The notes beneath the pieces are model-generated. The model was given only the letters and a program-made list of their open reading frames with translations, was not told the DNA's origin and did no database searches. This document shows positions 3,720-30,435 of a stretch of 64,000 nucleotides of DNA, one piece after another. Position numbers and translations under genes: made by a program. The stretch is taken from NCBI GenBank assembly GCA_949289635.1, contig CASEOS010000005.1, positions 537 through 64,536 on the forward strand, in the 5' to 3' direction. The stretch's first letter is position 1. The number at the start of each line of letters is the position of its first letter. This DNA is from an uncultured Eubacteriales bacterium. Lineage in GTDB: Bacteria > Bacillota > Clostridia > TANB77 > CAG-508.

Positions 3720-4086
3720 AGTAATCTGTCCTTTCTTTTTTACATTTTTATAATGATTGTAGTATAAGGTATTTATTTGTATATTTACCTTTTTGCAAGA
3801 TTAGTATATCACAATATGATAAAAAAATATACTGTTTTTAAATTTTAATTGTTAATTGTTAATTTATCATTTACTATTTATTATTTACTGTTTATTGTAT
3901 TTTTTGTTCTTGTTTTAGTATTTTGTTTCTTTAGCTTAGGAATATTTTTGTTTTTTTGAATATAATATGTAAGATGATAATGTTTGATTGGTGGGGATTA
4001 ATTGGAATTTAAAGATGATTCTAATTTGAAAAGAGGTGTTTAAAATTTAAAGTTTATTGGAAAATATTGTATTTTTGCTGAAAGTG

Positions 4087-4115
4087 TTGACATTGCAATC
4101 TATTAGTAGTATAAT
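4087..4115 (+). promoter_or_regulatory. consensus sigma-A promoter (TTGACA-17-TATAAT) driving tRNA-fMet
   Basis: TTGACA at 4087-4092, 17-nt spacer, TATAAT at 4110-4115, ~20 nt upstream of tRNA 5' end. Confidence 0.6.
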
Positions 4116-4135
4116 TATTTTTGTAAAATTTATAT

Positions 4136-4211
<76 letters not shown>

Positions 4212-12877: not shown

Positions 12878-12993
12878 TATAAATGGTGGTAAAAGTTCAA
12901 AATAAAAAAATACAAAATAAGCTAAAATTATGGAAAAATTTGAAACTTTATGATATAAAATATACTAGAAAAATAGATGAAGAGGTAATGAAA

Positions 12994-14448
12994 ATGGATG
13001 GTGCAATAAAAAGTATAATAGATAGAATGTGGAATAACTTTTGGGAAGGTGGAGTAACAAATCCACTAACAGTAATAGAACAAATAACATACCTTTTATT
13101 TATAAAAGGATTAGATGATATAGAAATAGCACATGAAAAAAATGATGTTATGTTAGGAATAACAAGTAAAAGAATATTTGATAAAGAACATCAAAATTGT
13201 AGATGGAGTAAATTTAAAGATTATCCTGCAGAAAAAATATTTAAGATAATGCAAGAAGAAGTATTTCCTTTTATTAAAAATTTGGGAAAAGACAAAGAAT
13301 CTGCTTATGCAAAATATATGGAAGATGCAATATTTATAATACCAACACCAATTATGTTACAAAAAGTTGTAACTGCAATGGACAAGCTAGAAATGAAAGA
13401 TAAAGACACTAAAGGTGATGTATATGAATATTTGTTATCTAAATTAAGCCAAGCTGGTGTAAATGGGCAATTTAGAACACCAAGACACATTATAAAAATG
13501 ATGGTGGAACTAATGAAACCAACACCAGAAGATATAATAGTAGACCCAGCATGTGGTACAGCAGGATTTTTAGTTGCAGCAGGAGAATATTTAAGAGAAA
13601 ATAAAGGAGATTTATTTTTATCAGAAAATCTAAATGAACATTTTAATAATACAATGTTTTATGGATTTGATATGGATAGAACAATGCTAAGAATTGGAGC
13701 AATGAATTTAATGCAACATGGTATAGAAAATCCTAATATTACATATAAAGATTCACTATCAGAAGATAATGAAGACAATGGGAAATATACATTAGTTTTA
13801 GCGAACCCACCATTTAAAGGTTCGATTGATGCAGAAAGAACATCAAAAGATTTATTAGCAATTACTAAAACTAAAAAAACAGAATTATTATTCTTAACAC
13901 TATTTTTAAGAATATTAAAAATTGGAGGAAGATGTGCTTCAATAGTACCAGATGGTGTATTATTTGGAAGTTCAAATGCTCATAAAGCAATTAGAAAAGA
14001 AATAATAGAAAATCATAAATTAGAAGCAATAATATCAATGCCAAGTGGGGTATTCAAACCTTATGCAGGAGTATCAACAGCAATTATGATATTTACAAAA
14101 ACAACACAAGGTGGAACAGATAAAGTTTGGTTTTATGATATGACAGCAGATGGATTTAGTTTAGATGATCAAAGACAACCTGTAAAAGAAAATGATATTC
14201 CAGATATTATAAAAAGATTTAACAATAGAGAATCAGAAGAAGAACAAAACAGAAAAAGAACAGAAAAATCATTCTTTGTAACAAAAAAGGAAATAGTAGA
14301 AAATGATTATGATTTATCGATTAATAAATATAAAGAAATAGTTATAGAAAAGAAAGAATATGAAAAGCCAGATGTTATTTTAAAAAGAGTAATTGATATG
14401 GAAGATGAAATCCAACAGAAATTGAAAGAGTTGGAGGAAATGATATGA
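12994..14448 (+). CDS. hsdM: type I restriction-modification methyltransferase subunit HsdM
   Basis: Motif I DPACGTAGFL, motif IV NPPF (LANPPFKGS); start chosen at ATG 12994 (RBS GAGG 8 nt upstream; longer ORF from 12883 possible). Confidence 0.85.
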   Translation: MDGAIKSIIDRMWNNFWEGGVTNPLTVIEQITYLLFIKGLDDIEIAHEKNDVMLGITSKRIFDKEHQNCRWSKFKDYPAEKIFKIMQEEVFPFIKNLGKDKESAYAKYMEDAIFIIPTPIMLQKVVTAMDKLEMKDKDTKGDVYEYLLSKLSQAGVNGQFRTPRHIIKMMVELMKPTPEDIIVDPACGTAGFLVAAGEYLRENKGDLFLSENLNEHFNNTMFYGFDMDRTMLRIGAMNLMQHGIENPNITYKDSLSEDNEDNGKYTLVLANPPFKGSIDAERTSKDLLAITKTKKTELLFLTLFLRILKIGGRCASIVPDGVLFGSSNAHKAIRKEIIENHKLEAIISMPSGVFKPYAGVSTAIMIFTKTTQGGTDKVWFYDMTADGFSLDDQRQPVKENDIPDIIKRFNNRESEEEQNRKRTEKSFFVTKKEIVENDYDLSINKYKEIVIEKKEYEKPDVILKRVIDMEDEIQQKLKELEEMI

Positions 14449-15500
14449 TGGAGAAAGTAAGATTAGGAGAATGTGCAACATTTATAAATGGCTATGCATT
14501 TAAACCAATAGATTGGTCAAGAAATGGAATACCTATAATTAGAATCCAAAATTTAACAGGTAGTATGAAGCAATTAAATTATTATAACGGAAAATTAGAT
14601 TCAAAATATATAATTAATAATGGTGATATATTAATTTCTTGGTCTGCTAGTTTGGGTATATTTGAATGGAAAAAAGAAAAGGCATATTTAAATCAACATA
14701 TATTTAAAGTTGAATTTAATAAAAAAAATATAAATAAAAAATATTTTGTATATTTAATAAAGTCAAAAATTAATGAGATGAAAAAGAACACACACGGATC
14801 TACTATGAAACATATAACTAAATCTGACTTTGATAAGATAGAGATATTTTTACCTAATATACAAGAACAGGAAAAAATTTCAAATATATTAGATAAAGTT
14901 CAACAAATAATAGATTTAAGAAAAAGACAAATAGAGGAATTAGATGAATTTATTAAATCTCTATTTATAGAGATGTTTGAAAATAATGATTGTGAAACTA
15001 AAAAATGGCAAGACGTATTTAATACAACAACTGGAAAATTAGACTCAAATGCAATGATAGAAGGTGGAATTTATCCATTTTTTACCTGCGCAAAAGAATC
15101 ATTTAGAATTAATGAGTATGCATTTGATTGTGAAGCGCTTTTATTAGCAGGAAATAATGCAGCAGGAGTTTATGATGTAAAACATTATAAAGGTAAATTT
15201 AATGCATATCAAAGAACCTATGTATTGACTTTAAAGAACGAAAAATGGAAATATGAATTATTTAAATTAGAATTGGAAGAAAAGTTGGATTTTTTAAAAA
15301 GTCAATCGAAAGGTTCAAATACTAGATATTTAACAATGAAGATATTAAATGATTTAACTTTTAAAGTTCCGGATTTAAATTTACAGAATAAATTTGCAGA
15401 ACTTGTAAAGCAAATTAATAAACAGAAATTTATACTAGAAAAAACTTTAAAAGAAACAGAAGAACTACAAGAAAGTTTAATGAATAAATATTTTAATTAG
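14445..15500 (+). CDS. hsdS: type I RM specificity subunit HsdS
   Basis: Overlaps hsdM stop (ATGA coupling); 351 aa with TRD plus conserved coiled-coil-like segments. Confidence 0.75.
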   Translation: MMEKVRLGECATFINGYAFKPIDWSRNGIPIIRIQNLTGSMKQLNYYNGKLDSKYIINNGDILISWSASLGIFEWKKEKAYLNQHIFKVEFNKKNINKKYFVYLIKSKINEMKKNTHGSTMKHITKSDFDKIEIFLPNIQEQEKISNILDKVQQIIDLRKRQIEELDEFIKSLFIEMFENNDCETKKWQDVFNTTTGKLDSNAMIEGGIYPFFTCAKESFRINEYAFDCEALLLAGNNAAGVYDVKHYKGKFNAYQRTYVLTLKNEKWKYELFKLELEEKLDFLKSQSKGSNTRYLTMKILNDLTFKVPDLNLQNKFAELVKQINKQKFILEKTLKETEELQESLMNKYFN

Positions 15501-15508
15501 GAGTAAAA

Positions 15509-16765
15509 ATGATTCAGATTATAACAGAAAACAATTATTTAAGAGAACAAACTAAAAATAATAGTGAATTTAAAGTAAATGGTTTCAAGAATATTGAAGC
15601 TATGGACGAATATGATATTAATATTATTGACTTAAATTCTCAAAATTTATGGTACAATAAGGGAGTAAATCAAGATAGTATTAATGAAATAAATGATTTA
15701 AAACATTTAAAAAATACTATAGAAAATTCTCTAAATTCAAAAATAGTAATAATATTGCCACAAAATTTAAATTATTATTGGAACAAATTTAATAATAAAT
15801 ATATTAATGAAGAACAATTAAAAAATGAAACGAAACTTATAGAAAAGATAATAAATGAAAATATATATTGCTTTCCATTTGACTTATATTATGAAAAAAC
15901 TATAACTAAAATAGGAGACAAAAAAATAAGCTCAGATTTTTGCTTTAGCAAAAAACAAATAGATACTAAATGGACTATATGCAATGTCACAAAAATTTTA
16001 AGTTCAACAAAATCTGATAAGATAAATACTATAAAAGTTAATGATAAAGTTTACATGACTTCATTAAATATAAATGAAAATATTGACTTAATAATTGAAT
16101 TCATGAAACATATAAAAATATATAATGAAAATGAGGAAATTGTGCCTATATGGATTAAGGATATTAATATACTAAATGATATTGAAATTAAGAAACAATT
16201 GAACCAAATAGACGAAGAGATATTGCAATTAGAACAAAATAAAATGCACATAAAAGAGGCAATAAATGAAAATAACAAAATTAAAAGTATATTATATGAG
16301 ACAGATAAAAAGTTACAAAATAAAGTTATAGAAATATTAAATGAAATATTAGATTATTCTGATGAAAATTTTGTGGATGAAATGGAAGAAGATTTTAGAA
16401 TAAAAAAAGAAAATATAACGTTTTTAATTGAAACAAAAGGTTTAAAAAGAAATATTGCTGGAACAGATATTAGTAAGACTTTGAATCATGTATTTGCTTA
16501 TGAAGAAACTATTCAAGATGAAAATAAACAAGAAAATGTAAAAGGTGTTTTTATAGTAGCAACACAAAGAGATAAAAATATATCAGAAAGAGAAGAAACT
16601 CCAGACAGGCAAATTAAAATTGCAGAAAGAAATAATATACTAATTATTAGAACAGAACAGTTATTAGAAATATTTGAAGATTTTCGAAATAAAAAAATAA
16701 ATACAGAAGATATAATTAAGTTACTGACTGAACAAAATGGTGAGTTAAAATATAATAAGGAGTAA
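15509..16765 (+). CDS. uncharacterised 418-aa protein embedded between hsdS and hsdR (possible PD-(D/E)xK-like C-terminal nuclease)
   Basis: Same strand, 8-nt and 3-nt gaps to hsdS and hsdR; central coiled coil; C-terminal D...FLIETKG (D-E-x-K-like); no Walker A. Confidence 0.5.
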   Translation: MIQIITENNYLREQTKNNSEFKVNGFKNIEAMDEYDINIIDLNSQNLWYNKGVNQDSINEINDLKHLKNTIENSLNSKIVIILPQNLNYYWNKFNNKYINEEQLKNETKLIEKIINENIYCFPFDLYYEKTITKIGDKKISSDFCFSKKQIDTKWTICNVTKILSSTKSDKINTIKVNDKVYMTSLNINENIDLIIEFMKHIKIYNENEEIVPIWIKDINILNDIEIKKQLNQIDEEILQLEQNKMHIKEAINENNKIKSILYETDKKLQNKVIEILNEILDYSDENFVDEMEEDFRIKKENITFLIETKGLKRNIAGTDISKTLNHVFAYEETIQDENKQENVKGVFIVATQRDKNISEREETPDRQIKIAERNNILIIRTEQLLEIFEDFRNKKINTEDIIKLLTEQNGELKYNKE

Positions 16766-16768
16766 AAT

Positions 16769-19700
16769 ATGTCAAATTTTGATTTTTTAAAACAAAGTAA
16801 AATATTTAATAATTTTTCAGAAGCATGTTGTGAAGCAGAAAATGGAATAGGATTAAACACAGTAACATGTAGCATATTAAGTAGAAGAGCACTAGAATTA
16901 GCAGTAAAATGGCTATATGCCAATGATAATGATTTAAGAATTCCATACAATGATAATTTATCAGCATTAGTTCATGATATAACATTTAAGAATATAATAG
17001 ATGAAAAATTGTTAAAGCAAATTGAATATGTTATAAAATTAGGAAATTTTGCAGTACATAATAATAATAAAATATCAAGAGAAGAGGCAATTCTTTCTTT
17101 AAGATATTTATATAATTTTACTTGTTGGATAGCATATTGTTATTCTGACAGTTTTGAAGAAAAAGAATTTGATGAAAATATTTTACCTAAACAAACTGTA
17201 AATGTATTAGCAGTAAAAGAAAGAGAAACTTTATATCAAGAATTAGAAGCAAAAGACAAAAAGATAGAAGAAACAAAAAAAGAAAATGAAGAATTAAGAA
17301 AAAAACTAACTCAAACAAGAGAAAATAAAAAGAAAAATTATGCATTTAATGTTAAAGATATATCTGAATACGAAACAAGAAAGAAATATATTGATTTGGA
17401 ATTAAAGTTAGCAGGATGGGATTTTGAAACTAATATACAAGAAGAATTAAAATTACAAGGTATGCCTAATAATCAAAATGTAGGATATGCAGATTATGTA
17501 TTATTTGGCAAAAATGGTTTGCCTCTTGCAGTTGTTGAAGCAAAGAGAACAAGTGTAGATCCAAAAGTTGGACAAAATCAAGCCAAATTATATGCAGATT
17601 GTATTGAGCAAGAATATCATCAAAGACCAGTTATATATTACACAAATGGATTTGAAATATATATGTGGGATGATGAAAATTATCCACCAAGAAAAGTAGC
17701 AGGATTTTACACACAAGATGAATTACAGTTATTAATAAATAGAAGAAGTAGTAAACAAAGTTTAGAGCATATATTTGTAGATGACAAAATAACAAATAGA
17801 GAATATCAGTTAGAAGCAATAAAAAGTGTTTGTGAAACTTTTGAAGAAGGACATAGAAAAGCATTATTAGTAATGGCAACAGGTACAGGAAAAACAAGAA
17901 CAGCTATATCAATAGTTGATGTACTATCTGATAAAGAATGGGTTAAAAATGTATTATTTTTAGCTGATAGAACAGTTTTAGTAAAACAAGCAAAAAATAA
18001 TTTTGTAAAGTTATTGCCTAATATGTCTTGCTGTAATTTATTGAGTACAGTAGATAATCCAGAAGATTCAAGAATTGTATTTTCAACATACCAAACTATG
18101 ATTAATGCAATAGATAGTACAAAAAGTAAAACAGGAAACAAATTATTTACACCAGGACATTTTGATTTAATTATTGTAGATGAAGCTCACAGAAGTATAT
18201 ATAAAAAATATCAAGCTATATTTGAATATTTTGATGGCTTAGTAGTAGGATTAACAGCTACTCCAAGAAATGATGTAGACAGAAATACATATAGATTTTT
18301 TGAAATAGAAAATGATGTACCTACATTTGCATATGAATATGAAAGAGCAGTAAAAGAAGGATATTTAGTAGATTATCATACTATAAAAACAAGTACAGAT
18401 TTTATGGATAGAGGAATTAAATATAATGAATTAAGTGCAGAAGAAAAAGAAGAATATGAAAATACCTTTGCAGATGATGAAGATAATATTCCAGAAGAAA
18501 TAGATGCTGCAGCTATTAATAGTTGGTTATTTAATAGGGATACCATAAAAAAATTGTTGGAACTTTTAATGGAAAAAGGATTAAAAGTAGAAGGAGGAGA
18601 TAAATTAGGAAAAACTATTATATTTGCAAGAAATCACAAACATGCAGAAAGAATAGTAGAAATATTTAATGAATTATATCCAGAGTATAGAGGTGAATTT
18701 GCAAAATTAATAGATAATCAAGTTAAGTATAACGAAAACTTAATAGAACATTTTAGTATAAAAGATGACTTTCCTCAAATTGCAGTATCTGTTGATATGT
18801 TAGATACAGGCGTTGATGTGCCAGAAATATTAAATTTAGTATTTTTTAAACCAGTAAAATCAAAAATAAAATTCTGGCAAATGATAGGTAGAGGAACAAG
18901 ACTTTGTAAAGATTTATTTGGAGTAGGGCAAGATAAAAAAGAATTTTACATATTTGACTATTGTAAGAATTTCGAATTCTTCTCTGAGAATCCAAAAGGT
19001 ATAGAAGCAAACACACAAATAAGTTTGACAGAAAGAATATATGGATATAAGTTAGATTTAATTGTAGAATTACAAAATATAAAATACCAAAGTGATGAGA
19101 AATTTAAAAATTATAGAGAAGAATTGATAGATGAATTTATTGAAGAAATAAATAAACTAAATAAAGAAAGTTTTTTAGTAAAAGCAAAAGTACATTATAT
19201 AGAACAATTTTCTAAGAAAGATAATTGGGTATATATCTCTACAATAGATTTAGCTGATATAAAAGAAAATCTAATTCCATTGTTTATAGCATCAGATGAG
19301 AATGAATCAGCTAAAAGATTTGACAATTTATTGTATCAATTACAAGTAAAAAGAATTAGAACAGAAAAAACTGGTAGATGTGAGAATGCAATAATAGATA
19401 CAGTATCTGAATTAGAAAAACTAGGAACAGTACCACAAGTAAAAGAAAAACAAGAATTGATTTTAAAAGTAGCAGAAACAGATTACTTGAAAGAAGCAGA
19501 TTTTTGGAAAGTAGAAGAAATTAGAAAAGAATTAAGAGATTTAATACAATTTATAGATCCATATAATAGACCGCCTGTATATATTGATATGGAAGATACT
19601 TTAAATGATATTGATGAAGAATATGTATATGTAAGTACAGGAAATAACTTCACAAATTATAGAAAAAAACTAGAAAAATTCTTAACAGGTAATTTAGAAA

Positions 19701-20116
19701 ACAGTATTATATGGAAAATAAGGCATAATATAAGATTAACAGAATTAGAAAAAGAAAATTTAGAAAAAATATTATTTGAAGAATTAGGAAGTAACAAAGA
19801 ATATGCAGAAACATTTGGAGATACAAATGTAATAAAAGCAGTAAGAAATATAGTTGGACTTGATAAAAGCGTTGCAAGTGATATTTTTTACAAATACATA
19901 AATGAAAATAGATTGAACATGAAACAAATACAATTTGTAAAATTACTAGTTGATTATGTTGTGAAAAATGGAACTATAGAAATGGAAAAATTAACAGAAC
20001 AACCTTTTAACACTGTTGGACAAGTATATGAGCTTTTTGGAAATAATGTGGATTTATTTAAAGAGATTCGAGAGGATATTGAAGAAATAAATGAGAATGC
20101 TGAGAAATTGGCATAA
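16769..20116 (+). CDS. hsdR: type I restriction endonuclease subunit HsdR
   Basis: 1115 aa; helicase motif I MATGTGKT, motif II IIVDEAHRS (DEAH). Confidence 0.9.
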   Translation: MSNFDFLKQSKIFNNFSEACCEAENGIGLNTVTCSILSRRALELAVKWLYANDNDLRIPYNDNLSALVHDITFKNIIDEKLLKQIEYVIKLGNFAVHNNNKISREEAILSLRYLYNFTCWIAYCYSDSFEEKEFDENILPKQTVNVLAVKERETLYQELEAKDKKIEETKKENEELRKKLTQTRENKKKNYAFNVKDISEYETRKKYIDLELKLAGWDFETNIQEELKLQGMPNNQNVGYADYVLFGKNGLPLAVVEAKRTSVDPKVGQNQAKLYADCIEQEYHQRPVIYYTNGFEIYMWDDENYPPRKVAGFYTQDELQLLINRRSSKQSLEHIFVDDKITNREYQLEAIKSVCETFEEGHRKALLVMATGTGKTRTAISIVDVLSDKEWVKNVLFLADRTVLVKQAKNNFVKLLPNMSCCNLLSTVDNPEDSRIVFSTYQTMINAIDSTKSKTGNKLFTPGHFDLIIVDEAHRSIYKKYQAIFEYFDGLVVGLTATPRNDVDRNTYRFFEIENDVPTFAYEYERAVKEGYLVDYHTIKTSTDFMDRGIKYNELSAEEKEEYENTFADDEDNIPEEIDAAAINSWLFNRDTIKKLLELLMEKGLKVEGGDKLGKTIIFARNHKHAERIVEIFNELYPEYRGEFAKLIDNQVKYNENLIEHFSIKDDFPQIAVSVDMLDTGVDVPEILNLVFFKPVKSKIKFWQMIGRGTRLCKDLFGVGQDKKEFYIFDYCKNFEFFSENPKGIEANTQISLTERIYGYKLDLIVELQNIKYQSDEKFKNYREELIDEFIEEINKLNKESFLVKAKVHYIEQFSKKDNWVYISTIDLADIKENLIPLFIASDENESAKRFDNLLYQLQVKRIRTEKTGRCENAIIDTVSELEKLGTVPQVKEKQELILKVAETDYLKEADFWKVEEIRKELRDLIQFIDPYNRPPVYIDMEDTLNDIDEEYVYVSTGNNFTNYRKKLEKFLTGNLENSIIWKIRHNIRLTELEKENLEKILFEELGSNKEYAETFGDTNVIKAVRNIVGLDKSVASDIFYKYINENRLNMKQIQFVKLLVDYVVKNGTIEMEKLTEQPFNTVGQVYELFGNNVDLFKEIREDIEEINENAEKLA

Positions 20117-20134: not shown

Positions 20135-20833
20135 ATGGCAAGAGGAGTAATTTATTGTATGACGACTATAGTGGATGGACTTGTAAAAATAGGAAAGACA
20201 AGGAAAGAAAATTTCGAACAACGTATGTATAATTTGGAGCATAATGGTTATGTTCAAATTGTAGGATTAAAAAGAAGATTTGCTATAGAAGTAGAAGATT
20301 ATGATGAAAAAGAAACGCTTATACAAGAGATTTTTAGAAAAAGCAATATAGAAAATACAGAATTATTTGCTGTAAATGTAGATTTAGTTGTTCAATTACT
20401 TTCATCACTAGAGGGAACACAAATTTTTCCAAAGTCAATAAGCAAAGAAGAATCTTTTAATACAGCGACAGATGAGATTCAAGAAAACATACATAATCCT
20501 AATAAATTTTTAGTTCCTGATGGAGAATATTATATTTCTCAAAAAAGTAATGGGAATCAAACTGCAAAAGCAACTATGAAAGTTGATAATGGTAAATTCA
20601 TTGTATTAAAAGGTAGTAGATGTCTTCCTTGTGATAAAGATTGGATGCCAGAAACAAGAAGAACGGCAATAATAGAAAATGGAATATTGATGAAAGATGT
20701 TGAATGTAATTCTCCTAGTACAGCAGGTTGGGTTGTTCTTGGAAGTGCTAATAATGGATGGTTAACCTGGAAAACTAAAGATGGTAAATCAATCAATGTA
20801 TTCAGAAATAACAAGATAACAAGTAATGAATAA
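20135..20833 (+). CDS. T5orf172 (GIY-YIG-like) / DUF4357 domain protein
   Basis: N-terminal GVIYCMTT...GLVKIGKT...R..NL pattern of T5orf172/MUG113 domain; frequently found next to type I RM loci. Confidence 0.55.
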   Translation: MARGVIYCMTTIVDGLVKIGKTRKENFEQRMYNLEHNGYVQIVGLKRRFAIEVEDYDEKETLIQEIFRKSNIENTELFAVNVDLVVQLLSSLEGTQIFPKSISKEESFNTATDEIQENIHNPNKFLVPDGEYYISQKSNGNQTAKATMKVDNGKFIVLKGSRCLPCDKDWMPETRRTAIIENGILMKDVECNSPSTAGWVVLGSANNGWLTWKTKDGKSINVFRNNKITSNE

Positions 20834-21106: not shown

Positions 21107-23053
21107 ATGAAAAGTATAGGTAAAAAAATAATAAAGATAATAAATGGACTTAATATTATTAATATTAGCATTTTATTAATATATAATTTTGAAAGTACAA
21201 AACATTTTATTAAAACTATAATTGTAGCGTTATTAGATGAAAATATTGCAATAAAAGTAAATGGCATTTATATTATGATACTGCCAACTTTAAAAAATAT
21301 AATATATTTATATATTATTATATTTTTTATTATAGCTACATTTAAAATAATATATTATTATTCGAAAAGGTATTTACAAAGAAAAAAAGTAGAAAAAGCA
21401 GATGAAATTAATAGAAATTTATTTGAGTATTTAAATAATGATGATAAAAAGTGTTTTGTAATTACAGGTGATTGGGGAGTGGGAAAAACATATACAGTAG
21501 ATGAATTTTTTAAAAATTATTTTAAATATGAAAGAAGAGAAGTATATAGAATTTCTTGTTTTGGAATGAAGGATAGGAAAGATGTATTACAGGAATTAAA
21601 AAATATTTTTGAAAAGCAAGATAAGTCTTTTAGAAAATATATGATTAATATTTTGAATAAAATACCTATTATTGGAGGATTACTTGAAGATGCTCTTAAA
21701 AGTGATTATGAATTTAAAGATTTAAAAGAAAAATCAATTTTTGTTTTTGATGATCTAGAAAGAATAAATATCCCCAATTATTCAAGTAGATATAATAGAG
21801 ATTGGTATAGAGTAAAAAACATACGACAAAATCCTTTTGAAAAGATACCATTAAACGAGTTATATAAAGAATTTAAAGAAATTGAAAGTTCTTTTAAAAA
21901 TTTTGATAATTCATTAGAAAAAATAAAAGAAGATATTGATATAGAAAAATTTAATGTTATTACAGGTATTATAAATGAATTAATAGAACGATATAATATG
22001 AAAGTAATTGTTATATGTAATAATGAAGAAATTGATAAAAATTTTTTTAATGATATATTTGAGTGTAAAATTGAAAGTGTTTTTTATAAAATTAATACTA
22101 AATATAAAATTACATTAGATTTGGCAACAAGAAATTTAAATAATAAATTATCCATAGAGGACGGTATTAAAGAAAAAGTAAAAGTTTTTTTTGAAACTAA
22201 TGCAAGTTGTATTGATAAAATATGGTATAAAAATAATGTAAAAAATGTAAGAGTATTATCTAAAACTATAAGTGCTTTTGTAGAAATTGTTGAGAATTAT
22301 AAAATTGAAGAGAAATATTACAAAGATTTATTTTTTACTATATTCATTACTAATATAGCTAATTATACAGGAGAAATATCATATTTAGAAGATATTCAAA
22401 TAGGAGAATTGATAAAAGCTTTTTATGAAAAACATATGTTAATGCTAGGAAATTATAGTAATATGTTGAAAAAAGGAATATTGTATAGTATTTCTTCTGA
22501 AGTAGATACATATGATATAAGATGGATGGGCTTAAATTTAGGTATTGCTTGGAACATGGGGATTCATAGATACGAAGGAATACAACAAGAGATTGAAAAA
22601 TATGATAGTTACAATTATGATGAAGAAAGAAAAATATTTTGTAAAAATGAAGATATAGATTTAGAAAATAATAATATATATAAATTTGACGATTTAGTTT
22701 ATTTGTTAAAAATAAATGTGGATAATGAAGAAAAAGTAAATAGTATATTTAAGATTATAAAAGAAGGAAAAATTGACTATATAAGTCATACATCTTTTAC
22801 ATATGGTGGTAGAGCATTTGGAAATATAAATAATGAGAAAGATGCAAGCAAAAAAGAAATTATATTTGCAACATTGCAATCCTATAAAATTGATGATACC
22901 ATATTGACAAAAATTTTTGAAATATTAGAAAATATTATAGATGCAAACGAAATAGATAATTTTTCAGAAAGAAAGTCAAGTAATTTATTGAAAACGGTAG
23001 AAGACAAGTATATAAACTTTTTAAATAATAAAAGAAAAATTGAAAAGAAATAA
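21107..23053 (+). CDS. KAP-family P-loop NTPase with N-terminal transmembrane segments
   Basis: 648 aa; TM helices at N-terminus; Walker A GDWGVGKTY, Walker B IFVFDDLER. Confidence 0.6.
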   Translation: MKSIGKKIIKIINGLNIINISILLIYNFESTKHFIKTIIVALLDENIAIKVNGIYIMILPTLKNIIYLYIIIFFIIATFKIIYYYSKRYLQRKKVEKADEINRNLFEYLNNDDKKCFVITGDWGVGKTYTVDEFFKNYFKYERREVYRISCFGMKDRKDVLQELKNIFEKQDKSFRKYMINILNKIPIIGGLLEDALKSDYEFKDLKEKSIFVFDDLERINIPNYSSRYNRDWYRVKNIRQNPFEKIPLNELYKEFKEIESSFKNFDNSLEKIKEDIDIEKFNVITGIINELIERYNMKVIVICNNEEIDKNFFNDIFECKIESVFYKINTKYKITLDLATRNLNNKLSIEDGIKEKVKVFFETNASCIDKIWYKNNVKNVRVLSKTISAFVEIVENYKIEEKYYKDLFFTIFITNIANYTGEISYLEDIQIGELIKAFYEKHMLMLGNYSNMLKKGILYSISSEVDTYDIRWMGLNLGIAWNMGIHRYEGIQQEIEKYDSYNYDEERKIFCKNEDIDLENNNIYKFDDLVYLLKINVDNEEKVNSIFKIIKEGKIDYISHTSFTYGGRAFGNINNEKDASKKEIIFATLQSYKIDDTILTKIFEILENIIDANEIDNFSERKSSNLLKTVEDKYINFLNNKRKIEKK

Positions 23054-25898: not shown

Positions 25899-26543
25899 AT
25901 GCAAAGTAAAAAAGAAGTGAAATTAAAAATAATAGATTTAGAAGATATAAAATCAATGGAACGATATCTTAATGAAGAACAAATGCAATTCTTAAAAAAT
26001 ATATATGAAATTGAATATGATGAGAAAACAACAATAAGGCAAATACTAAATTTTTTAATTAATGGACTAAAAGAATATTATATTAATTATAATAGTGTAG
26101 AAGAAATATTTAAAGACTATTTTTTAAAAAGTAGATTTAATATAATTATAAATAAAAAATATGTACGAATTTATGATTTGGACATACCAGTATACATGAT
26201 TTTAAATTATATACAAAATCAAGAAATAGACCTGTCTTTTATATTGGAGCCTGGTGGTGGATTTGATGCGTTAGAGCAATATAATGGAATAAAATATATA
26301 ATGAAAACGCATGAACAGGGAAGACATAATAACCCACACATACATGTATGCTATTCAGGAGAGGAAATTATTGTTAATATTATAAATGGACAAGTAATAG
26401 AAGGAAAAATGAACTCTAAAAAGAAAAAAGAAGCAATTCAAAGAATTATAAAAAATAAGGAAGAATTATTACTTTTGTGGAATACAAGAACAGATGGTAC
26501 TCCATATGAGGTAAGTGAAGAAGACTTTAATTTAAAAGTGTAA
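25899..26543 (+). CDS. hypothetical protein with C-terminal DUF4160-like domain
   Basis: HNNPHIHVCYSGEE...WN pattern typical of DUF4160. Confidence 0.4.
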   Translation: MQSKKEVKLKIIDLEDIKSMERYLNEEQMQFLKNIYEIEYDEKTTIRQILNFLINGLKEYYINYNSVEEIFKDYFLKSRFNIIINKKYVRIYDLDIPVYMILNYIQNQEIDLSFILEPGGGFDALEQYNGIKYIMKTHEQGRHNNPHIHVCYSGEEIIVNIINGQVIEGKMNSKKKKEAIQRIIKNKEELLLLWNTRTDGTPYEVSEEDFNLKV

Positions 26544-26800: not shown

Positions 26801-28087
26801 GTGATGCTAGTTGAATTTAGTGTTAAAAATTTCATGTCATTTAAAGATAAAGTAACCTTTAGTATGGAAGCAGCAACAGGAACAGAAAATGAAGAAAATA
26901 TAATAAGTATACCCAATATAAATGAAAGAATTTTAAAGAGCACAGCAATATATGGAGCAAATGCATCAGGAAAAACAAATTTAATAAATGCATTTACAGC
27001 AGCAATATTAATGATAAGAAAATCAAATAATAGACAGGTTGGAGAAAAATTAACAGAAATGGAACCATTTGCATTTGATGAAAAAACTAAATTAGAACCA
27101 TGTGAATTTGAATTTGTTTTTTATGCAAAAGGAATGAAATATATATATGGATTTATAGCAGATAAAGAAAAAGTATATGAAGAATATTTATATCAGTATT
27201 TTACAGCTAAGCCTACAAGAATATTTGAAAGAACTAATGTAAATGAATATAAATTCCTACAGGCAGATGAAGGAAAATTAAATGCTATAAAAACACAAAA
27301 TATAGATAATAAATTGTTTTTAGCTACAGCAACAACATGGAATTATGATAAGACAAAAGAACCATATTTGTGGTTTGCAAAAAATATAGACACATATACT
27401 GGTGGAATGTTATTAAACGATTTTGTTGTAGAGTCATATAACAACAAAGATGAAGGGGAAGAACTAAAAAAATTTGCATTAAAATTATTAAACGAAGCAG
27501 ACATTGTAATAAAAGACTTTAGTGTAGAAATCGAAGAACGTGATGTAGATAGTAATATGATAATGCTGTTAAAAAACTTTAATATTCCTTCACAAATATT
27601 GCCACAAAAACAAAGAGATGTAAAAATAAGAATGACACATGAAGTTATTAATGATAACGGCGATATGAAAAGTTATGAATTAAACTTTAATAATGAGTCT
27701 TCAGGAACACAAATTCTATTTTCATTTGCACCAATATTAAAAGATGTTTTTGAGAATGGAAAAATATTAGTAATAGATGAAATTGAAAGAAGTTTGCATC
27801 CTAATTTAGTAGAAATGATTATTAAATTCTTTCATAACCCACAAATTAATAAAGGAAATGCACAGTTAATATTTAATACACATGATACAAATTTATTATC
27901 TTTAGATATATTTAGAAGAGATCAGATATGGTTTGCAGAAAAAGATCCACAGAAAGGGGCTACTGTTTTATATCCTCTTGATGACTTCTCAGTTAGAAAA
28001 AATGAGAATATACAAAAAGGATATTTAAATGGAAGATATGGAGCAATTCCTTTTGTAGCTATGGGTAATAGCTTATGGGAAGATTAG
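26801..28087 (+). CDS. AAA_21/ABC-type ATPase (OLD/AbiLi-like)
   Basis: Walker A GANASGKTN, Walker B-like LVIDEIERSLHP; translationally coupled to downstream RloB-like gene. Confidence 0.65.
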   Translation: MMLVEFSVKNFMSFKDKVTFSMEAATGTENEENIISIPNINERILKSTAIYGANASGKTNLINAFTAAILMIRKSNNRQVGEKLTEMEPFAFDEKTKLEPCEFEFVFYAKGMKYIYGFIADKEKVYEEYLYQYFTAKPTRIFERTNVNEYKFLQADEGKLNAIKTQNIDNKLFLATATTWNYDKTKEPYLWFAKNIDTYTGGMLLNDFVVESYNNKDEGEELKKFALKLLNEADIVIKDFSVEIEERDVDSNMIMLLKNFNIPSQILPQKQRDVKIRMTHEVINDNGDMKSYELNFNNESSGTQILFSFAPILKDVFENGKILVIDEIERSLHPNLVEMIIKFFHNPQINKGNAQLIFNTHDTNLLSLDIFRRDQIWFAEKDPQKGATVLYPLDDFSVRKNENIQKGYLNGRYGAIPFVAMGNSLWED

Positions 28088-28701
28088 AAGGATTTAAACA
28101 AAGAGGTAGAAACCGACAAAGTAGGCAACGAAACCCTATTATAGTAATAGGATGTGAAGGTGCAAACAAAACAGAAGAGATTTACTTTAGAAACTTTAAT
28201 AGTAGAAAATGTATTATAAAATTTTCTACAGGAAATAGCACAGATCCAGTTGGAATTGTTAATGATTTAATAAAATTTATAGATAATGAAATTGGGAGAG
28301 AAGATGGAGACAAATATTATGTGGTGTTAGATACGGACGTAAATCAAGATAAACAAAGTCAGATTGATAAAGCGAAAGCATTAGCGATAAAAAATGGAGT
28401 TGAATTTATAACTTCAACTCCAACGTTTGAATATTGGTACATGTTACATTTTGAATATACAACGAAGACATACCATTCAAGTGAGGAAGTTCAAAATGAT
28501 ATAAAAGATAAAATAAAAGGCTATACAAAAAGTATGAATACATATCCTGTTTTAAGAGACAAGACAGATAATGCCATAAAAAATGCTAGAAAAGTTGAAA
28601 AACATCATTTAGATTTAGGACAAGCATTAGATAATGAAAATTGTAATCCTTATACAGCAGCATATAAAGTTGTAGAAGAATTAATGAAAAGAAATAATTG
28701 A
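28075..28701 (+). CDS. RloB-family (Toprim-like) protein, AbiLii-like
   Basis: N-terminal IIVIGCEGANKTEEIYF matches RloB signature; 13-nt overlap with upstream ATPase. Confidence 0.6.
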   Translation: MGRLEGFKQRGRNRQSRQRNPIIVIGCEGANKTEEIYFRNFNSRKCIIKFSTGNSTDPVGIVNDLIKFIDNEIGREDGDKYYVVLDTDVNQDKQSQIDKAKALAIKNGVEFITSTPTFEYWYMLHFEYTTKTYHSSEEVQNDIKDKIKGYTKSMNTYPVLRDKTDNAIKNARKVEKHHLDLGQALDNENCNPYTAAYKVVEELMKRNN

Positions 28702-28830: not shown

Positions 28831-29202
28831 ATGGACTATATAATAATAGAAAAATTGAAAAAATTAAGAAAAAGTAAAAAGATCACACAAGAACAGTTAG
28901 CTGAAAAATTAGATATAAGCCGTTCTAAAGTTTCTAGTTGGGAAACAAATCGAAGAGATATGAGTATAACAGAAGCAATAAGATTAGCTAATATATATGA
29001 GGTTAGTTTAGATAATCTGTTCGAAATAAAAAAAATTACAGAAGAAGAATATGTGAAAATTTCTGATAAATTTTTAAAAGGTACAAACATATCTCTTGAA
29101 GAAAAAGTTAAAATAATAGAATTAATTAGAGAAACATTAAAGAAGAATAATATTGACGAATTCTACGAAATTTACAAAATGACACAAAATGCGACAAAAT
29201 AG
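28831..29202 (+). CDS. XRE-family HTH regulator
   Basis: ITQEQLAEKLDISRSKVSSWETNRR HTH. Confidence 0.65.
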   Translation: MDYIIIEKLKKLRKSKKITQEQLAEKLDISRSKVSSWETNRRDMSITEAIRLANIYEVSLDNLFEIKKITEEEYVKISDKFLKGTNISLEEKVKIIELIRETLKKNNIDEFYEIYKMTQNATK

Positions 29203-29296
29203 ATTTAAAATATCTATTTTGTCGCATTTTGGCTATGTAAAATTAGAAAGAAAATTGGTATAATATTTAAGTAGATATATAAGGAGGGATATAGTT

Positions 29297-29716
29297 GTGC
29301 AAGAACAAACAAATAAAATTGGGCACTTAAATATGATACAAGGAATAATTTCGAGAATGGGAAATAACGCATTTTCTTTAAAACAATGGGCGGTTGGAAT
29401 AATGATTGCTATATATGCTTTTGCAGGGGAAAATTCTCATAAGGCTGTAATAGTAACAATAATTCCATTAATAGTTTTTTGGTTTTTAGATTCATATTAT
29501 TTAATGATTGAACGTAAATATAGATGTTTATATGATGAAGTAAGAAGAAAAAAGGAAAAAAATATTGATTTTAATATGAATACTAATTTGATAAATGTGA
29601 AAATGAAGAATATAAATAATTATTGCTTGATTAAAGTGGCATTCTCAAAAACAATATGGCCTTTTTATATAGTATGTATTGCAACTACATTAATAATTTA
29701 TTTTATAAAATTTTAG
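29297..29716 (+). CDS. small 3-TM membrane protein (SLATT-like candidate effector), GTG start
   Basis: 139 aa; amphipathic N-term then TM hairpin (WAVGIMIAIYAFAG / AVIVTIIPLIVFWFL) and C-terminal TM; ends 10 nt before TIR-like gene. Confidence 0.35.
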   Translation: MQEQTNKIGHLNMIQGIISRMGNNAFSLKQWAVGIMIAIYAFAGENSHKAVIVTIIPLIVFWFLDSYYLMIERKYRCLYDEVRRKKEKNIDFNMNTNLINVKMKNINNYCLIKVAFSKTIWPFYIVCIATTLIIYFIKF

Positions 29717-29725
29717 GAGGTAATT

Positions 29726-30217
29726 ATGAAAAGACAAGTATTTTATAGTTTTCATTATAAAAATGACTGTTGGAGAACGAGTCAAGTTAGAAATATAGGA
29801 GCTATTGAGGGGAATAAGCCTGTTTCAGAAAACGAATGGGAAGAAGTAAAAAGAAAAGGTGACGAGAATATAAAAAATTGGATAAATGATCAGCTGAAAT
29901 ATAGAAGTTGTACAATAGTTTTAATAGGTGAAGAAACGTCAGAGAGAAAATGGGTAAAATATGAAATAAAAAAGAGTTGGGAAGATGGAAAAGGTATTTT
30001 AGGTATTTATATACATAATTTAAAAAATCAAAATGGAGAAAGAAGTAGGAAGGGTAAAAATCCGTTTGAACAATTTACTTTAAAAGGTGGAGAAAAGTTA
30101 TCAAATAAAATAAAAGTATATAATCCACCATATGAATTTGATAGTAAAGCAAATTATAACTATATTGCTGAAAATATAGAGGATTGGATAGAAACAGCAA
30201 TTAATGATAGAAAATAA
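29726..30217 (+). CDS. TIR-like (DUF1863 / ThsB-like) domain protein
   Basis: VFYSFHYKND...TIVLIGEETSERKWVKYEIKKSWEDGKGILGIYIHN matches DUF1863 TIR-like pattern. Confidence 0.5.
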   Translation: MKRQVFYSFHYKNDCWRTSQVRNIGAIEGNKPVSENEWEEVKRKGDENIKNWINDQLKYRSCTIVLIGEETSERKWVKYEIKKSWEDGKGILGIYIHNLKNQNGERSRKGKNPFEQFTLKGGEKLSNKIKVYNPPYEFDSKANYNYIAENIEDWIETAINDRK

Positions 30218-30236: not shown

Positions 30237-30371
30237 ATGTACACTACAGGTGAAAAACCAGGAAAAGGTGAATACTATTGTACAAAATGTGGACAAAATG
30301 TAACATTAGATGATAATACTGATACTTTACCACCATGTCCAAAGTGTTCTAATACTACTTATAGAAAATAA
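30237..30371 (+). CDS. 44-aa zinc-ribbon small protein (absent from ORF track: below size cut-off)
   Basis: MYTTGEKPGKGEYYCTKCGQNVTLDDNTDTLPPCPKCSNTTYRK; RBS GGGGGG 7 nt upstream; followed by intrinsic terminator. Confidence 0.4.
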   Translation: MYTTGEKPGKGEYYCTKCGQNVTLDDNTDTLPPCPKCSNTTYRK

Positions 30372-30435
30372 TATTAAAAATCAAAGGCGAGAATATACTC
30401 GTCTTTTTTATTTAGTCATAAATAACTAACAATAT
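30371..30435. repeat. 65-bp direct repeat, copy A (with 32058-32121)
   Basis: ATATTAAAAATCAAAGGCGAGAATATACTCGTCTTTTTTATTTAGTCATAAATAACTAACAATAT, ~88% identical to copy B. Confidence 0.7.
30383..30410 (+). terminator. rho-independent terminator
   Basis: AAAGGCGAG-AATATA-CTCGTCTTT stem-loop followed by T-run. Confidence 0.55.

Follow-up and report, generated by a model that had tools for sequence, protein, structure and literature searches.

The window analysed here is a 64-kb stretch of contig CASEOS010000005.1 from an uncultured gut Clostridia lineage (~25% GC), and all coordinates refer to that whole stretch. Between positions 28831 and 30406 it carries, on the same strand, the genes of an XRE-family regulator, a small membrane protein (thsF), a TIR protein (thsB) and a zinc-ribbon protein, of which thsF and thsB very probably constitute a type V Thoeris anti-phage system, judging from the sequence comparisons given below. 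An earlier sequence-only reading of this DNA had recognized the first three open reading frames (ORFs), and all of them are real and lie where that reading placed them. The features of the locus are as follows.

28831 to 29202, plus strand: XRE-family helix-turn-helix (HTH) regulator of 123 aa (HTH_3, 1.2e-14), a clade-specific accessory of the cassette.
29185 to 29231, no strand assigned: perfect 19-bp inverted repeat, CAAAATGCGACAAAATAGA-N9-TCTATTTTGTCGCATTTTG, a candidate XRE operator and/or XRE terminator hairpin.
29256 to 29264, plus strand: TGgTATAAT, putative extended -10 element of the promoter that would serve thsF, thsB and the zinc-ribbon gene, read from the sequence.
29297 to 29716, plus strand: thsF, GTG start, 139-aa protein with three transmembrane (TM) segments, predicted effector of type V Thoeris (PADLOC PDC-M50A, 1.7e-42).
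29726 to 30217, plus strand: thsB, 163-aa TIR protein (DUF1863/ThsB_TIR, 1.4e-28), predicted sensor and signal synthase.
30237 to 30371, plus strand: small zinc-ribbon protein of 44 aa from the ATG at 30237 (DUF1451 C-terminal zinc ribbon, 1.9e-11).
30383 to 30406, plus strand: intrinsic terminator ending the operon (9-bp stem with 4 GC pairs, followed by a T-run).

The membrane protein gene begins with GTG, as had been read before, and AAGGAGGG stands 8–16 nt 5' of this codon (29281-29288); the N-terminus of the 139-aa product is kept in homologs. The spacer between the thsF stop and the thsB ATG measures 9 nt (10 nt in the sequence-only reading, essentially right) and contains GGAGG, the ribosome-binding site overlapping the stop codon. 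Downstream, the mechanical ORF of the zinc-ribbon gene begins at 30204, its likely start being the ATG at 30237, which has a GGGGGG motif in front, and this is the last gene of the thsF-thsB transcription unit. Both the zinc-ribbon ORF and the terminator behind it had been overlooked previously; the terminator search found two where 0.2 were expected. The window proteins are 97–99% identical to those of an uncultured Clostridia metagenome-assembled genome (MAG) from chicken gut (L001).

For the membrane protein Pfam and NCBIfam hold no family and give only sub-threshold likenesses (DUF3278 at 7e-4, DUF2270 at 0.052). A full HMMER scan of 1.84 billion cluster representatives returned 4520 relatives at E<=1e-3 (2676 at E<=1e-10), nearly all of 130–145 aa, and for the TIR protein there are 3523 relatives at E<=1e-20, numbers that place both genes far beyond chance. 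In a preprint of December 2025, Yirmiya et al. listed 29 putative Thoeris types and verified seven new ones; type V consists of ThsB and ThsF, and for ThsF the authors give three TM helices, the label DUF2270 and a model of a homo-heptameric channel; the verified type V systems come from B. thuringiensis DAR 81934 and Bacillus sp. 1NLA3E (10.64898/2025.12.03.692087). The B. thuringiensis system is reported to provide defence in B. subtilis, its ThsB to make 3' cyclic ADP-ribose (3'cADPR) in an infection-dependent manner, and its toxicity to be specific to 3'cADPR, with inhibition or relief by the Tad1 sponge (10.64898/2025.12.03.692087). The window ThsF is 38% identical over nearly its full length (BLASTP, E 8e-32) to the gene beside this verified ThsB. 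Profile comparison agrees, the ThsF family profile aligning with the B. thuringiensis effector at an hhalign probability of 100% (E 4.6e-42), and the latter matches PDC-M50A at 1.8e-48. We located that effector through a protein (P0270) which is 100% identical to the DAR 81934 ThsB of Table S1 in the preprint; in its locus (L029) a 141-aa gene lies 13 nt downstream of thsB (3773-4198), and since this position fits the numbering of Table S2, where the effector ID is the TIR ID + 1, we take it to be the verified effector.

Family-averaged hydropathy places hydrophobic segments of ThsF at about 31–44, 50–64 and 121–138, and an AF2 model (pLDDT 83) has helices at 2–42, 47–84 and 121–138, so that the three TM segments suggested by the sequence-only reading were found by both means; the third is conserved across the family. 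Five conserved basic residues (K7, R20, K29, R73 and R76) fall in the cytosolic hairpin and are compatible with a ring-shaped homo-oligomer having basic pockets between protomers. A side observation concerns residue 25 (29369-29371), which is Ala here and also in the 99%-identical MAG counterpart (L001). The Ser found at this position in 94% of 125 relatives sits within a conserved N-S-F motif, and the Ala may be a neutral or a tuning change.

The same protein had been likened to SLATT-type pore-forming effectors (DUF4231 and relatives), which would turn the pair into a type VII-like Thoeris. The general architecture is indeed similar, with a cytosolic helix, a TM hairpin and another cytosolic helix, and pairs of SLATT and TIR proteins do exist, both as type VII of the preprint (10.64898/2025.12.03.692087) and on a S. 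chromogenes plasmid (L146). However, ThsF has three TM helices and the SLATT architecture two, and the window protein gives no match to the SLATT models at E<=0.1. None of the 125 ThsF relatives matches SLATT or DUF4231 in Pfam at E<=0.01, whereas the TIR-partnered plasmid protein, used as a positive control, scores at once (DUF4231 1.1e-23, SLATT_1 2e-10). Against this control the ThsF family profile reaches an hhalign probability of only 0.2% and BLASTP finds no alignment, while the direct homolog of the window protein is ThsF. A SLATT effector is thus highly improbable at this locus; ThsF lies outside that family, though it may work in a SLATT-like way.

Recurrence of the pair elsewhere, on which the sequence-only reading had let its proposal depend, proved to be the rule. 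We collected 133 ThsF-family loci, of which GTDB species genomes supplied 25, metagenomes 80 and IMG/VR 28, and located TIR ORFs by iterative phmmer from 28 seed TIRs, counting as adjacent those within 150 bp on the same strand. A TIR ORF adjoins ThsF in 117 loci (88%; 23/25 GTDB, 69/80 metagenome and 25/28 IMG/VR), lying downstream in 67, upstream in 46 and overlapping in 4. These TIRs belong to at least 10 seed classes, including those of both verified type V systems, and the loci lacking one mostly have short flanks or an undetected TIR type. A fixed ThsF combined with variable TIR sensors is the hallmark pattern of Thoeris. Together with the homology to a verified effector, this linkage bears out the idea of a two-gene, Thoeris-like unit in which a small membrane effector replaces ThsA.

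The gene preceding thsF invites another pairing, a toxin-antitoxin or prophage-type regulatory module made of the XRE regulator and the small membrane protein, of which the adjoining TIR gene would be independent. The XRE gene directly precedes the TM gene and its product has weak matches to antitoxin and phage-repressor HTH families. Yet XRE accompanies the TM gene in only 9 of the 133 loci, against 117 for TIR, and the 9-nt gap with a ribosome-binding site overlapping the stop codon ties the TM gene to the TIR gene, so we give such a pair almost no credence.

Some of these loci merit description in their own right. ThsF-family genes occur on 28 IMG/VR viral contigs, and a phage-like plasmid of Clostridium botulinum, p6CSt, encodes a terminase small subunit and also has a ThsB gene with that of a 135-aa ThsF behind it (L028:2501-3745); this ThsB is of the PDLC00430 class and 45% identical to the verified B. 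thuringiensis ThsB. In another locus (L023:5980-8718) what comes after ThsF is a TIR-like N-terminal fragment of 60 aa that overlaps a 719-aa ORF with weak P-loop/helicase matches, an arrangement that represents either a frameshifted TIR-NTPase fusion or an assembly error.

In one case the ThsF module is part of a larger protein. In this 378-aa protein (P0153, L147:1189-3637) the N-terminal part is a SLOG cluster-2 domain (PF18163, 1.7e-15) and the C-terminal part a three-TM module like ThsF (family HMM E 1.7e-66); its gene comes after a TIR_2 gene and an unassigned 152-aa ORF. Such a fusion implies that a dedicated SLOG sensor can drive the membrane module of ThsF, and its placement after a TIR gene marks the TM module as a signal-driven effector. 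A second apparent fusion, of 343 aa (L109), was rejected as just an over-extended ORF in GC-rich DNA.

The assignment of the TIR-like protein to ThsB/DUF1863 held up in the profile searches. Besides ThsB_TIR/DUF1863 itself, it matches the PADLOC ThsB model (3.6e-77) and, over its full length, PDC-M50B (2.3e-68). Among structures in the PDB it aligns with 8WCF (8.6e-49) and with BcThsB (6LHY/9B7D, 8e-20), and its E80, in the motif WVKYEI, aligns with the catalytic glutamate of the WVRYEI motif of BcThsB. The entry 8WCF, by far the closest solved structure, was deposited as "Molecular chaperone Tir". A scan of viral contigs with the window ThsB as query gave no matches.

As for the signal, Table S1 of the preprint gives the entry "DUF2270 - Type V" for TIRs that share 54% identity with the window ThsB. 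Closer relatives, 62–71% identical, stand beside ThsF-family genes (L139, L140 and L144), beside a TIR-SLOG protein as in type IX (L143) and, in Alteribacillus, beside a SIR2_2+STALD ThsA as in type I (L142, 64% identity). Given that 3'cADPR has been reported for types I, V and IX (10.64898/2025.12.03.692087), these partnerships make it the most likely signal here, and we conclude that the window ThsB probably produces 3'cADPR. Two of the loci have a different layout, with a divergent ThsF-like gene (156 aa) and, behind it, two distinct ThsB genes of 163 and 228 aa (L139:2019-3693 and L140:2018-3691); the second lies beside a phage-type integrase and so presents a multi-sensor type V layout on a mobile element.

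Many bacterial TIRs are NADase effectors themselves, for instance in CBASS, Pycsar and TIR-pAgo (10.64898/2025.12.03.692087), and sequence alone cannot separate signalling from NAD-depleting TIRs. The TIR protein of the window could accordingly be the killer, depleting NAD+, with the membrane protein acting only as anchor, sensor or regulator. However, the homologous type V ThsB on its own made 3'cADPR on infection, added 3'cADPR was toxic only when the system was present, and a 3'cADPR sponge relieved defence (10.64898/2025.12.03.692087). Moreover, the partners of close relatives of the window ThsB include canonical effectors that are switched on by a signal (SIR2-SLOG in L142, TIR-SLOG in L143), and the TM module of ThsF also occurs in fusion with a SLOG sensor domain. 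We therefore regard direct killing by the TIR protein as very unlikely, and ThsB as a signal-producing sensor as the better account.

The absence of a SIR2, Macro or SLOG ThsA, already remarked on in the sequence-only reading, was confirmed, as tblastn of SIR2-SLOG, Macro, TIR-SLOG and SLATT examples against the 64-kb window found nothing apart from thsF itself and PADLOC scans of the neighbours found no ThsA. Type I Thoeris of B. cereus MSX-D12 shares with the window the ThsB family and the catalytic glutamate and probably, in view of the 64%-identical ThsB beside the Alteribacillus ThsA, also the 3'cADPR signal, but its effector is an NAD+-depleting SIR2-SLOG enzyme and not a 139-aa membrane protein. 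Types VII (SLATT ThsH) and II (TM-Macro) resemble the window system in that a TIR signal activates a small membrane effector thought to oligomerise and breach the membrane. ThsF, in contrast, has neither sequence nor profile similarity to SLATT/DUF4231 and no Macro domain, and the signals reported for these types are canonical cADPR for VII and His-ADP-ribose (His-ADPR) for II (10.64898/2025.12.03.692087).

The closest known system remains type V. With it the window operon has in common a homologous effector (~140 aa, three TM helices), the pairing of this effector with a ThsB TIR in a two-gene operon, and a defence-island setting. It differs in its ThsB, which belongs to a TIR clade other than those of both verified systems (DUF1863, BcThsB-like, 163 aa), in its gene order with the effector first, in the upstream XRE, the conserved palindrome and the trailing 44-aa zinc-ribbon gene that its clade adds, and in its host, an uncultured gut Clostridia lineage of ~25% GC. 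Both window proteins match the PDC-M50 pair (A and B) of PADLOC-DB v2 over their full length (1.7e-42 and 2.3e-68), which gives further support to the type V assignment. PDC-M50, however, is a computational candidate to which no function is attached, and its B model covers the 163-aa ThsB subtype only, whereas ThsF pairs with many TIR classes. The assignment follows from the homology of ThsF to a verified effector together with the Table S1 type V TIRs that are 54% identical to the window ThsB.

Several observations weigh against this assignment or against parts of it. Both verified type V systems use other ThsB clades, and BLAST finds no similarity between the window ThsB and that of the verified B. 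thuringiensis system. The TIR cluster of the window ThsB in Table S1 also holds TIRs of type XI, for which no known signal was detected, and in one of the two verified type V systems 3'cADPR did not bring about toxicity (10.64898/2025.12.03.692087); for these two reasons the identity of the signal as 3'cADPR is not certain. The oligomeric ThsF channel is an AF3 model only (10.64898/2025.12.03.692087), and the Ala at position 25 of the window ThsF departs from the Ser of 94% of relatives. Finally, the window protein stays below the Pfam model of DUF2270 (PF10028; E 0.052, 13.6 bits vs a cutoff of 25). This last point applies equally to the verified B. thuringiensis ThsF, which has no PF10028 match at E<=0.1, so that the DUF2270 label is a remote annotation and no usable criterion of membership. 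Only 6 of the 125 relatives reach PF10028 at E<=0.01. The verified ThsF has a weak full-length match to 8xMP (PF24838, E 0.012), and the sub-threshold Pfam likenesses among the 125 family members are to DUF3278 (22, the commonest), 8xMP (8) and DUF2270 (6); we did not accept any of the three as family membership.

The homologies, the linkage of the genes, the topology, the conserved residues (catalytic and basic) and the expression signals obtained in this analysis suggest how a type V system would operate here. The genes thsF, thsB and the zinc-ribbon gene would be transcribed from the extended -10 promoter to the terminator at 30383-30406. ThsB would be the sensor, its TIR domain with the catalytic Glu80 turning NAD+ upon infection into a cyclic ADP-ribose isomer, most probably 3'cADPR. 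In ThsF, the predicted effector, the long N-terminal helix and the helix following TM2 would form a cytosolic hairpin with the basic residues, and a membrane homo-oligomer of this protein may bind the signal in positively charged pockets between protomers. Once activated, ThsF would breach or permeabilise the membrane and the cell would be stopped before the phage cycle is completed (abortive infection). In this Clostridia clade an XRE repressor travels with the operon and probably acts at the palindrome abutting the promoter.

The sequence-only reading had listed the XRE regulator beside the pair, an association that only the closest relatives share. The gene lies directly 5' of thsF in just nine loci (L001-L007, L031 and L032), whose ThsF proteins are at least 72% identical, and it is absent from the other loci of the 133, so that it is no general component. 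The zinc-ribbon gene has an even narrower distribution, being present in 7 of these 9 loci and missing from L002, L003 and all more distant ones. Genes outside the cassette vary among the nine loci and, because these flanking genes differ, XRE-thsF-thsB, with or without the zinc-ribbon gene, moves as a unit. The two exceptions (L002:190-1589 and L003:5534-6924) retain XRE (85–89% identity) and ThsF (82–84%), but identity drops to 53% in their ThsB and they lack the zinc-ribbon gene. This pattern points to a sensor swap, which looks recent, and shows that the zinc ribbon goes with the ThsB subtype.

The XRE protein itself has a capH-like match in PADLOC (1.3e-9) and RmrA-like HTH matches; regulation of the CapH/CapP type found no counterpart in that no peptidase gene adjoins XRE, its neighbours being AbiLii and thsF. 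The left arm of the 19-bp inverted repeat consists of the last codons of the XRE gene; the right arm, TTTTGTCGCATTT, is non-coding and hardly varies across 10 related loci, unlike the loop. When the window was searched with the palindrome arms, only the two arms themselves were recovered at 0 mismatches and none upstream of XRE, and in the lack of further exact copies we see no evidence for a second, autoregulatory operator. The palindrome is followed by TTGnTATAAT, conserved in 10/10 aligned loci, an extended -10 element that a promoter consensus scan missed because of its weak -35. We infer from this arrangement that the palindrome is an XRE operator and/or a terminator abutting the operon promoter.

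These additions could be taken further. The Clostridia cassette of XRE, thsF, thsB and zinc ribbon might be a regulated sub-variant of type V in which the 44-aa zinc ribbon is a true third component, for instance a trigger adaptor or a brake on ThsB, and in which the signal might differ from 3'cADPR, the ThsB clade sharing its TIR cluster with type XI. We consider this extended reading rather unlikely.

The thsF-thsB operon is situated within a defence island according to PADLOC; the other members and the further candidates around the operon are listed here in order.

12883 to 20116: type I restriction-modification system (PADLOC).
20135 to 20833: PDC-S57 (5.7e-97).
21107 to 23053: PDC-S49-like 648-aa protein (1.2e-15).
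25899 to 26543: 214-aa protein with a C-terminal DUF4160 domain, an uncharacterised defence candidate.
26801 to 28701: AbiL (PADLOC).
30746 to 32020: PDC-S01 (AAA_14+DUF4143; 3.8e-64).

The restriction-modification operon (HsdM, HsdS and HsdR) has an extra ORF of 418 aa between S and R (15509-16765), which gave no PADLOC match. PDC-S57, the PDC-S49-like protein, the DUF4160-domain protein and PDC-S01 are all uncharacterised defence candidates flanking the operon.

The sequence-only reading proposed a minimal Thoeris-like variant, a concept that was right but whose novelty has been overtaken, the pair being PDC-M50 and type V Thoeris. The system is thus of an already known kind, listed as PDC-M50 in PADLOC in 2023 and described as type V in the December 2025 preprint, and the concept of Thoeris signalling is unchanged by our findings. 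The residual novelty is small and consists of the pairing of ThsF with a ThsB clade other than those of the verified systems and of the clade-specific XRE, palindrome and zinc ribbon. What the locus does add is an extension of the range of type V Thoeris to uncultured, very AT-rich gut Clostridia, and a view of the ThsF family as a large one, with at least 4,500 clusters at 50% identity, almost always linked to TIR genes and frequent on viral contigs. Because the Pfam model does not retrieve the DUF2270 label, these systems will escape annotation pipelines; they are found with the PDC-M50A models of PADLOC or a dedicated ThsF profile. The window ThsB clade, whose members pair with effectors of types I, V and IX, lends itself to testing which signals and effectors are compatible, and the conserved addition of XRE, palindrome and zinc ribbon allows the transcriptional control of a Thoeris operon to be put to the test.

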